A DNA stretch of 64,000 nucleotides from assembly GCF_013315695.1 (NCBI RefSeq), contig NZ_CP054353.1. One strand, written 5' to 3'. The stretch's first letter is position 1. Each line of letters begins with the position of its first letter. This DNA comes from Escherichia coli (GTDB lineage: Bacteria > Pseudomonadota > Gammaproteobacteria > Enterobacterales > Enterobacteriaceae). Of the stretch, positions 50,001 through 53,000 are shown in pieces. The position numbers were made by a program.

Positions 50001-53000
50001 GCTTTCCTCGAAAAACGTAAACCTAATTTCGTTGGTCATTAATCCCTGCGAACGAAGGAGTTAAAATGGAAACTCAGTGGACAAGGATGACCGCCGATGA
50101 AGCGGCAGAAATTATCCAGCATAACGACATGGTGGCATTTAGCGGCTTTACCCCAGCGGGTTCGCCGAAAGCCTTACCCACCGCGATTGCCCGCAGAGCT
50201 AACGAACAGCATGAGGCCAAAAAGCCGTATCAAATTCGCCTGCTGACGGGGGCGTCAATCAGCGCCGCCGCTGACGATGTACTTTCTGACGCCGATGCTG
50301 TTTCCTGGCGTGCGCCATATCAAACATCGTCCGGTTTACGTAAAAAGATCAATCAGGGCGCGGTGAGTTTCGTTGACCTGCATTTGAGCGAAGTGGCGCA
50401 AATGGTCAATTACGGTTTCTTCGGCGACATTGATGTTGCCGTCATTGAAGCATCGGCACTGGCACCGGATGGTCGAGTCTGGTTAACCAGCGGGATCGGT
50501 AATGCGCCGACCTGGCTGCTGCGAGCGAAGAAAGTGATCATTGAACTTAATCACTATCACGATCCGCGCGTTGCAGAACTGGCAGATATTGTGATTCCTG
50601 GCGCGCCACCGCGGCGCAATAGCGTGTCGATCTTCCATGCAATGGATCGCGTCGGTACCCGCTATGTGCAAATCGATCCGAAAAAGATTGTCGCCGTCGT
50701 GGAAACCAACTTGCCTGACGCCGGTAATATGCTGGATAAGCAAAATCCCATGTGCCAGCAGATTGCCGATAACGTGGTCACGTTCTTGTTGCAGGAAATG
50801 GCGCATGGGCGTATTCCGCCGGAATTTCTGCCGCTGCAAAGTGGCGTGGGCAATATCAATAATGCAGTCATGGCGCGACTAGGGGAAAACCCGGAAATTC
50901 CTCCGTTCATGATGTATTCGGAAGTGCTACAGGAATCGGTGGTGCATTTACTGGAAACGGGCAAAATCAGCGGGGCCAGCGCCTCCAGCCTGACTATCTC
51001 GGCCGATTCCCTGCGCAAGATTTACGACAATATGGATTACTTTGCCAGCCGCATTGTGTTGCGTCCGCAGGAAATTTCCAATAACCCGGAAATCATCCGT
51101 CGTCTGGGCGTCATCGCTCTGAACGTCGGCCTGGAGTTTGATATTTACGGGCATGCCAACTCAACGCACGTAGCCGGGGTCGATCTGATGAACGGCATCG
51201 GTGGCAGCGGTGATTTTGAACGCAACGCGTATTTGTCGATCTTTATGGCCCCGTCGATTGCTAAAGAAGGCAAGATCTCAACCGTCGTGCCAATGTGCAG
51301 CCATGTTGATCACAGCGAACACAGCGTCAAAGTGATCATCACCGAACAAGGGATCGCCGATCTGCGTGGTCTTTCCCCGCTTCAACGCGCCCGCACCATC
51401 ATTGATAATTGTGCACATCCTATGTATCGGGATTATCTGCATCGCTATCTGGAAAATGCGCCCGGCGGACATATTCACCACGATCTTAGCCACGTCTTTG
51501 ATTTACACCGTAATTTAATTGCAACCGGCTCGATGCTGGGTTAATGACTCGTCCCGTCACGATCTTCAGCAATATGCTGAAGCATCGTGGCGGTATAACG
51601 ATGATTTCTGATTGAATAAAGATATTCCTGCATATACATCGGCCTGTGCGGCGCATCAAAATATTTCAGCGTTGCCGGATTCACCAGTCGCCAGGCAAAA
51701 TGCGGGATCACCGTCAGAAAATGTCCGCGCTCCACGGCGCTGATTTTGGCCATAAAACTGTAGGGACGATAAATAATGGTGGGATTGATCCCACAAGGAC
51801 GCATATTCGCATCAATCATTGCTTCGAAGTTAGCCCGGTTCTGAAAGCGCATTTGTAGCCAGGGTAGCTCCTGAAGCAGCTCTTGCTCTTGTCGCTCTTC
51901 ATAACGACGAGAAACGAGAAAGCCCAATCGCAGCGGCGGTAGTTCACTGATAGTCAGGTTTTCCAGTTCCTGAACTCGTGCAGACACATGCTGTGGGGAG
52001 ATTATAAAATCTAACTGACGGTCAAAAAGATTATCGATAACGCCGTTTTCGCTGAACTCAACTGGCTGGGCGGTCACGCCTTCATACTTATCTCCGAGAC
52101 TAATCAACTGATCGAAAATAATTGTCGGATAAGTATTATCTATGCCAATCACAATTTCTCGTGAACGACGCCCTGAGTTATGGATTTCATTATCAATCGC
52201 AGAAAGTCGTTGATAAACCGGGAACAGTTTTTGATACAGTTCCTGTCCGGCTTTATTGAGGCTGATATTATTATCTTTGCGGGTAAATAGCGTATAGCCA
52301 ATTTGTTCTTCCAGCGCGGCAATGCTTTTACCAAATGGCGAAGCCGTCATATACCAAATGGCGAAGCCGTCATATGGATTTTTTCTGCCGCCCGGGCAAT
52401 ATTATTGGTTTGCGCTAATAAAATGAAATTGCGCATCTTTTTCGAAATAAAAATGTCCATACCCCCTCCCCCGCATCCTTGTCCGCTTAACCGTTTCAGT
52501 CAGCCTATCCTTGATGAAACCGCGAGCAAAGATAGGTGATTACGTCATGGTTTTACAGAAAATTACAGAAAAAGGAGGCAATATCGGGTAAAGGCATTAG
52601 CCCGACGAATACGTCGGGCTACAAATATTATTGTGCTGCCGGTGTTTTAGCGGGTTGTTGATCCACAGGTTCTAACTGGAAGACCACATCGACCTGATCA
52701 TCAAACTGAATAGCGGCCTGCTCGTAAGTTTCCTGGGCGGACACCGGCGCGGCATCGGCTTTCATCATCCGCACCATTGGGCTGGGCTGATAGTTGGAAA
52801 CATGGTAGCGCACGCTATATACCGGCCCCAGTTTACGATGAAAGCCGTTCGCCAGTTCCTGCGCCTGATGAATCGCGTTATCAATCGCTGCCTTACGCGC
52901 TTTGTCTTTATAGGCATCCGGCTGCGCCACGCCCAGCGACACAGAACGAATTTCGTTAAGACCCGCCTTCAGCGCGCCATCCAGCAAGGAATTCAGTTTG

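Follow-up and report, generated by a model that had tools for sequence, protein, structure and literature searches.

A 23-bp tandem duplication predicted to inactivate the LysR-type regulator gene srsR (ygfI) in an Escherichia coli strain

The srsR locus and the duplicated segment

The 64-kb stretch of E. coli DNA analysed here (hereinafter, the window) contains, between scpC (plus strand, ending at 51544) and yggE, a minus-strand gene (ATG at 52460, stop codon ending at 51541) that, when intact, encodes a LysR-type regulator of 298 amino acids. In nearly every one of the 5,426 complete E. coli genomes, RefSeq names the orthologous 897-nt gene srsR ('LysR family transcriptional regulator SrsR'), and srsR is the new name of ygfI (PMC9181523); the identification of this gene as ygfI in the original prediction, which was made from the sequence alone, therefore agrees both with the RefSeq annotation between scpC and yggE and with the published renaming. 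The orthology is further supported by 100% identity, apart from the insertion described below, to srsR of E. coli MSB1_4I, and by matches covering at least 80% of the query in 5,405 genomes, with srsR annotated at the matching location. scpC (plus strand) and srsR (minus strand) are convergent and share 4 nt at their stop codons (51541-51544), and there is no gene downstream of srsR on its strand, so that polar effects of a lesion in srsR are not expected.

The K-12 counterpart of this gene, SrsR or YgfI (b2921, for which the name DhfA has also been proposed), is a LysR-type activator of stationary-phase stress genes. The gene in the window occupies the same position as b2921, between scpC and yggE, and its MSB1_4I ortholog is a 298-aa protein with the HTH_1 and LysR_substrate domains; unlike the intact SrsR of K-12, however, the gene in the window is broken at codon 37 by a 23-bp duplication.

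The duplicated unit, TACCAAATGGCGAAGCCGTCATA, is present twice, head-to-tail, at 52329-52351 and 52352-52374; the two copies are 100% identical and abut, with nothing between them. Tandem Repeats Finder reports an array with a period of 23, 2.0 copies, 100% matches and a score of 94 that reaches 52375, the next base being a T, the same as the first base of the unit, so that the register of the duplication is ambiguous by one base. When up to 3 mismatches were allowed, the 23-nt unit was found in two copies in the window and in none of 100 dinucleotide-preserving shuffles, and across the 64 kb the duplication is the sole tandem repeat with a score of at least 50. The perfect 23-bp tandem duplication that had been predicted at 52329-52374 was thus recovered with exactly these coordinates.

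Copy A (52352-52374, minus strand, gene nt 87-109) encodes the last base of the H29 codon, the codons for M30, T31, A32, S33, P34, F35 and G36, and the base that opens the following codon, whereas copy B (52329-52351, minus strand, nt 110-132 of the mutant gene) contributes the TGA that ends the first open reading frame (ORF1) and the ATG that opens the second one (ORF2). On the minus strand, the segment reads CAT ATG ACG GCT TCG CCA TTT GGT ATA TGA: MTASPFG is encoded twice, the frame downstream of the 23-nt insertion is displaced by +2 (23 mod 3), and GGT is followed by one further codon and then the stop (...PFG-I-TGA), all of which had been correctly read in the original prediction. The premature TGA is codon 38, and the downstream sequence is the same as in the wild type, without any compensating change. 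With an insertion of a length not divisible by 3 and an early stop, the locus has the features of a frameshift pseudogene generated by tandem duplication and is predicted to be one. The first of the two remaining reading frames, ORF1 (52347-52460, minus strand; 37 aa, MDIFISKKMRNFILLAQTNNIARAAEKIHMTASPFGI, followed by the stop), begins with the native start codon of srsR and includes the first half of the winged helix-turn-helix (wHTH), and the second, ORF2 (51541-52350, minus strand; 269 aa, starting with MTASPFGKSIAALEEQ, followed by the stop), corresponds to SrsR residues 30-298. The start of ORF2 and the stop of ORF1 overlap within an ATGA (52347-52350, minus strand).

Comparison with related genomes and other lesions in srsR

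The nearest complete genome is that of E. coli MSB1_4I (NZ_LR898874.1), which was isolated in Australia from a human rectal swab. Alignment of the window with the srsR region of MSB1_4I shows one clean 23-base insertion and otherwise identical sequences over 220 bases. Over the 64 kb, the window differs from MSB1_4I by 3 SNPs, 1 homopolymer base and 1 IS1-bounded deletion, in addition to the 23-bp duplication; no second tandem duplication or similar indel relative to MSB1_4I was found within the window. The SNPs are located at position 6, at position 32638 in gcvT (R61 in the window vs H61 in MSB1_4I) and at position 57591 (synonymous, pgk nt 930), and the homopolymer difference is at 4243-4250 (A8 in the window vs A7 in MSB1_4I). 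Such near-identity over 64 kb argues for a clean assembly and a recent event.

Several of the other differences and shared features deserve a brief description. The A8/A7 site lies within an ETT2 gene that is flagged 'frameshifted' by RefSeq in MSB1_4I, and a 256-aa ORF in the window (4042-4812, minus strand) passes uninterrupted through the A8 run; the difference may be genuine, or either assembly may be in error here. Part of the ETT2 type III secretion cluster of MSB1_4I, 8,340 bp in length (L012 36240-44579), is missing from the window; it reaches from the EscN fragment into the PrgH/EprH gene, most of which is lost, and includes one IS1 copy. The junction of this deletion (6657/6658) begins exactly at the end of an IS1 (6658-7425), as in IS1-mediated adjacent deletion; as a single piece, this junction was detected in no complete RefSeq E. 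coli genome, and no closer relative was found. The IS1 at 53962-54729 interrupts argO, leaving a 164-aa ORF (53461-53955), and the same insertion is annotated in MSB1_4I; the IS1 at 14587-15354 truncates uacT, likewise in MSB1_4I.

Comparison with ygfI in other strains, which had been proposed along with the original prediction, was performed and showed that nearly all of them carry a single copy of the unit. The single-copy allele is present in about 5,400 of the 5,426 complete E. coli genomes, and the 46-nt two-copy junction in none of them; more than 99% of E. coli strains have an intact srsR, with a median of one copy per genome. Searches with a 34-nt junction produced no match in 100,044 GTDB species-representative genomes or in JGI metagenome contigs, and an exact look-up of the allele-specific 37-aa ORF1 peptide returned no record. 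The absence of the junction from all collections searched argues that the duplication is a recent, private allele of the source strain.

The exact 269-aa ORF2 product is found on contigs in 516 blocks of a public collection, which might be taken as a sign that the allele is common. This reading was ruled out because none of 10 such loci that were inspected contains the duplication; all 10 instead carry an A6-to-A5/A7 change or another 1-nt upstream indel, and several are accompanied by broken neighbouring genes. The A6 run (52379-52384, minus strand, gene nt 77-82) ends 4 nt upstream of the unit, and 269-aa srsR calls in other public assemblies can usually be traced to its A5 and A7 variants. 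Because, in the curated complete genomes, A7 and A5 occur only once each among 5,426 (in 64EVA and GDSC2227PM, respectively), most of the 269-aa srsR calls are probably long-read homopolymer errors.

Other lesions of srsR involve IS1. About ten complete genomes carry an IS1 within the first 130 nt of the gene, at no fewer than 3 independent sites, including gene nt 118-127 (FMU073332) and, with IS1 in either orientation, about nt 45-60 (E41 and JNEC-KY203). The insertion in FMU073332 is only ~10 nt away from the segment that is duplicated in the window. The top megablast matches (H1-H10, 98.5-99.2%) were considered as possibly better matches and rejected, their alignment pieces being joined across srsR IS1 insertions. 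The IS1 and A6-run alleles resemble the duplication in that all fall in the 5' 130 nt of the gene, and the A-run alleles, in addition, leave the same 269-aa ORF starting from M30; they differ in the nature of the molecular lesion, without the 23-bp duplication, and the IS1 alleles are not precisely reversible in the same manner. Collectively, the genome comparisons indicate that disruptions of srsR are rare, independent of one another and concentrated at the 5' end of the gene.

The same comparisons bear on whether the duplication is an artefact of assembly, consensus calling or cloning (or a variant from a minority subpopulation), with a single-copy, intact srsR in the living strain. Typical long-read errors are 1-nt homopolymer indels, and these, rather than perfect 23-bp duplications, are what the faulty assemblies of srsR show; a de Bruijn assembler would produce the junction GTCATATACCAAATGG only if it were present in the reads. 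Furthermore, the window is nearly base-perfect against the independently obtained MSB1_4I sequence, with one homopolymer difference in 64 kb, and contains no further tandem repeat. Thus, although the allele is known from one sequence only, and the unit includes a G+C-rich mini-hairpin (GGCGAAGCC), a type of structure that can disturb sequencing chemistry, we consider an artefact unlikely.

The split DNA-binding domain and the remaining reading frames

Pfam assigns residues 8-65 of the intact SrsR to HTH_1 (56.9 bits) and residues 89-283 to LysR_substrate. ORF1 matches only positions 3-28 of the HTH_1 profile (PF00126), with 21.9 bits, under the gathering cut-off of 26.6, whereas ORF2 matches positions 25-60 of this profile and the entire LysR_substrate domain (PF03466; ORF2 residues 60-254, 47 bits vs the cut-off of 28). 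Hence no single polypeptide encoded at this locus combines a complete HTH_1 with the effector domain, the HTH_1 being split between ORF1 and ORF2. The original prediction had the HTH-coding N-terminus separated from the effector-domain ORF; the frame break itself stands, but the separation is not an interdomain one, the Pfam matches placing the cut through the HTH (profile positions 25-28).

In alignments with CrgA (3hhg) and 9hh1, both of which are LysR regulators with solved structures, the SrsR sequence 'HMTASPFGKSIAALEE' is matched by 'AMANSAVSRIVKRLEE' and 'HLSQSAISRQVSALEQ', respectively. We take the SrsR segment at the duplication to be the turn of the LysR DNA-binding domains together with the first turns of their recognition helix. 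The break is accordingly placed, by sequence comparison, within the helix-turn-helix itself, and neither fragment is predicted to contain a complete wHTH. Because the HTH_1 domain is split across two ORFs, srsR in the window is best described as a predicted pseudogene rather than a functional member of the LysR-type family.

The native srsR start is preceded by a GGAGG Shine-Dalgarno sequence (52465-52469, minus strand), with an anti-Shine-Dalgarno pairing energy of -11.8 kcal/mol compared to -2.8 kcal/mol at ORF2. Independent initiation of ORF2 thus appears unlikely and, given this weak pairing, termination-reinitiation at the ATGA would be the sole plausible route to its translation. No promoter-like site is predicted to be created at the duplication junction. 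Bypass of the frameshift, or prfB-like recoding at ATA-TGA, was ruled out by inspection, there being neither a slippery codon nor an upstream Shine-Dalgarno sequence.

Reinitiation at the ATGA could, in principle, yield SrsR 30-298, a protein that would bind the ligand and oligomerise and might have a new or residual role, for instance, as an effector sink or in mixed oligomers, in which case the allele would not be null. The exact overlap of the stop and start codons and the retention in ORF2 of the LysR_substrate domain, the linker, the recognition helix and the wing are compatible with such a product. However, apart from the very weak pairing at its start, this protein would have lost helices 1-2 of the three-helix wHTH, so that DNA binding is very unlikely, and it would have no wild-type partner to poison in a cell with the usual single copy of the gene. 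Moreover, no natural LysR regulator with this architecture is present among the structure-alignment matches. We therefore give very little credence to a functional truncated product.

The best-supported reading is that the duplication allele is null and SrsR function is lost. The extra 23 bases would shift the frame such that ribosomes starting at the native ATG terminate within the HTH, after 37 residues; the rest of srsR would be open only from the ATG in the second copy, with almost no Shine-Dalgarno sequence, and its product would be devoid of helices 1-2 of the DNA-binding domain, leaving the cell without a DNA-binding SrsR. On the assembled sequence, we consider it very likely that the duplication is real and represents a recent, strain-private loss-of-function allele of srsR. 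By all appearances, this is a genuine but ordinary strain-private frameshift knockout of a conserved regulator with modest effects, and a potentially reversible one: the srsR allele is new, the kind of lesion is well known, and no new system or mechanism is involved, so that the finding would not surprise a specialist.

Origin, reversibility and possible consequences of the duplication

In the intact allele, the microhomology flanking the unit is limited to 1 nt, a single T, as indicated by the end of the repeat array at 52375 and by the alignment. Slippage between pre-existing direct repeats was thus rejected as the origin of the duplication, and the minimal microhomology argues for a de novo, repeat-independent tandem duplication, in which replication or repair would have produced a second, head-to-tail copy of gene nt 87-109 (23 bp), unaided by any flanking repeat. 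The original description of the duplication as a slipped-strand type lesion accordingly fits the expected mode of its reversion but not the way in which it arose. De novo head-to-tail duplications that are independent of existing repeats have been described in E. coli, with an enrichment in topA R168C mutants and reported lengths of 2-19 bp (PMC6954433). The duplication in the window is similar to these in being head-to-tail, perfect, repeat-independent and gene-disrupting but, at 23 bp, it exceeds the reported range, and the likeness is one of form alone, topA lying outside the window. Even so, it appears to be a clean natural case of repeat-independent tandem duplication, a class for which the formation mechanism in bacteria is unsettled.

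The unit is nearly coextensive with an imperfect palindrome, CCA-A-ATGGCG-AAGC-CGTCAT-A-TGG (52354-52377, plus strand), the inner stem of which is also present in copy B (52335-52350); its GCGAAGC core is a notably stable DNA mini-hairpin. The single-stranded DNA fold of the palindrome in the intact allele has an energy of -5.4 kcal/mol (z = -1.45), and 18 of 200 shuffled sequences fold as well. A hairpin-driven origin was set aside, the fold energy being not significant compared to the shuffles, and a hairpin-assisted template switch can be regarded as a weak lead at most. The hairpin ATGGCG-AAGC-CGTCAT followed by ATGGATTTTT (52358-52383, plus strand) also resembles a terminator antisense to srsR; this arrangement is found in the intact allele as well and is probably a chance match to the consensus. 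A mobile-element footprint or an engineered scar was ruled out given that the copies abut without any remnant sequence. Target-site duplications of 23 bp are not known, and the IS1 insertion in srsR of FMU073332 leaves an overlap of ~10 nt, compared to the 23-bp unit.

In E. coli, tandem direct repeats are an unstable arrangement, subject to deletion via RecA-independent template switching, as demonstrated with 101-bp repeats (PMC8378479). The repeats employed in these experiments by the Lovett laboratory are similar to those in the window in that they are perfect and adjacent and are located in a coding sequence, with the gene restored upon the loss of one copy; they are, however, 101-bp plasmid repeats, whereas those in the window are 23-bp chromosomal ones, for which contraction is expected to be rarer. 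By analogy, RecA-independent template switching could remove exactly one copy of the unit, which would restore the wild-type srsR precisely, so that reversion is plausible and the reversibility put forward in the original prediction holds in principle.

In K-12, SrsR binds 10 loci via the TCAGATTTTGC box, and its level rises about 25-fold in the stationary phase; deletion of srsR decreases the levels of the target mRNAs, increases biofilm formation and reduces survival in 30 mM H2O2 from 1.3% to 0.18% (PMC9181523). YgfI has also been reported to bind upstream of dhaKLM, and a ygfI mutant grows poorly on glycerol (bioRxiv 10.1101/2021.12.22.473864), whereas no effect of YgfI on fucAO was detected (PMC11011485). 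If these K-12 deletion data apply, the duplication would be expected to entail lower expression of SrsR-activated genes in the stationary phase, increased biofilm formation, and reduced H2O2 survival and growth on glycerol. The K-12 phenotypes are, however, mild and partly disputed, and the main K-12 target, the yfdO/yfdP region of the CPS-53 prophage, may be absent from the strain represented by the window; the consequences in this strain are uncertain because the phenotypes are modest and the strongest K-12 target belongs to a K-12 prophage. The SrsR-linked traits, namely biofilm formation, H2O2 tolerance, and dhaKLM and glycerol use, may nevertheless differ between this strain and the near-identical sister isolate MSB1_4I, and the two would make a natural isogenic pair for the study of a poorly understood regulator.

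A more speculative scenario is that the duplication represents an adaptive, reversible OFF state of SrsR in a human gut-associated clone, which might, for example, favor biofilm formation and revert, through exact loss of one copy, when tolerance to oxidative stress is needed, with the 269-aa non-DNA-binding ligand binder possibly persisting. If so, the 5' 130 nt of srsR, with the A6 run, the quasi-palindrome and the IS1 target, would be a mutational hot region that tunes the stationary-phase regulon; we see only a very slim chance that this is the case. A programmed ON/OFF switch (contingency locus) for SrsR is extremely improbable because, even if a perfect tandem repeat can in principle contract to the wild type and A-run changes, the duplication and IS1 insertions cluster within ~50 nt at the 5' end of the gene in different strains, the copy number of the unit does not vary among the complete genomes (two copies in 0 of 5,426, with A5 and A7 in 1 of 5,426 each), GTDB representatives or metagenome contigs, the site has no multi-copy repeat tract, the unit length of 23 nt is not divisible by 3, and a change from one copy to two has no known high-rate forward mechanism in wild-type cells (PMC6954433).

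With regard to annotation, the loss-of-function reading implies that srsR in the strain represented by the window should be flagged as a pseudogene. Among the genomes with IS1 insertions, RefSeq keeps shortened 'srsR' CDSs in E41 and JNEC-KY203.
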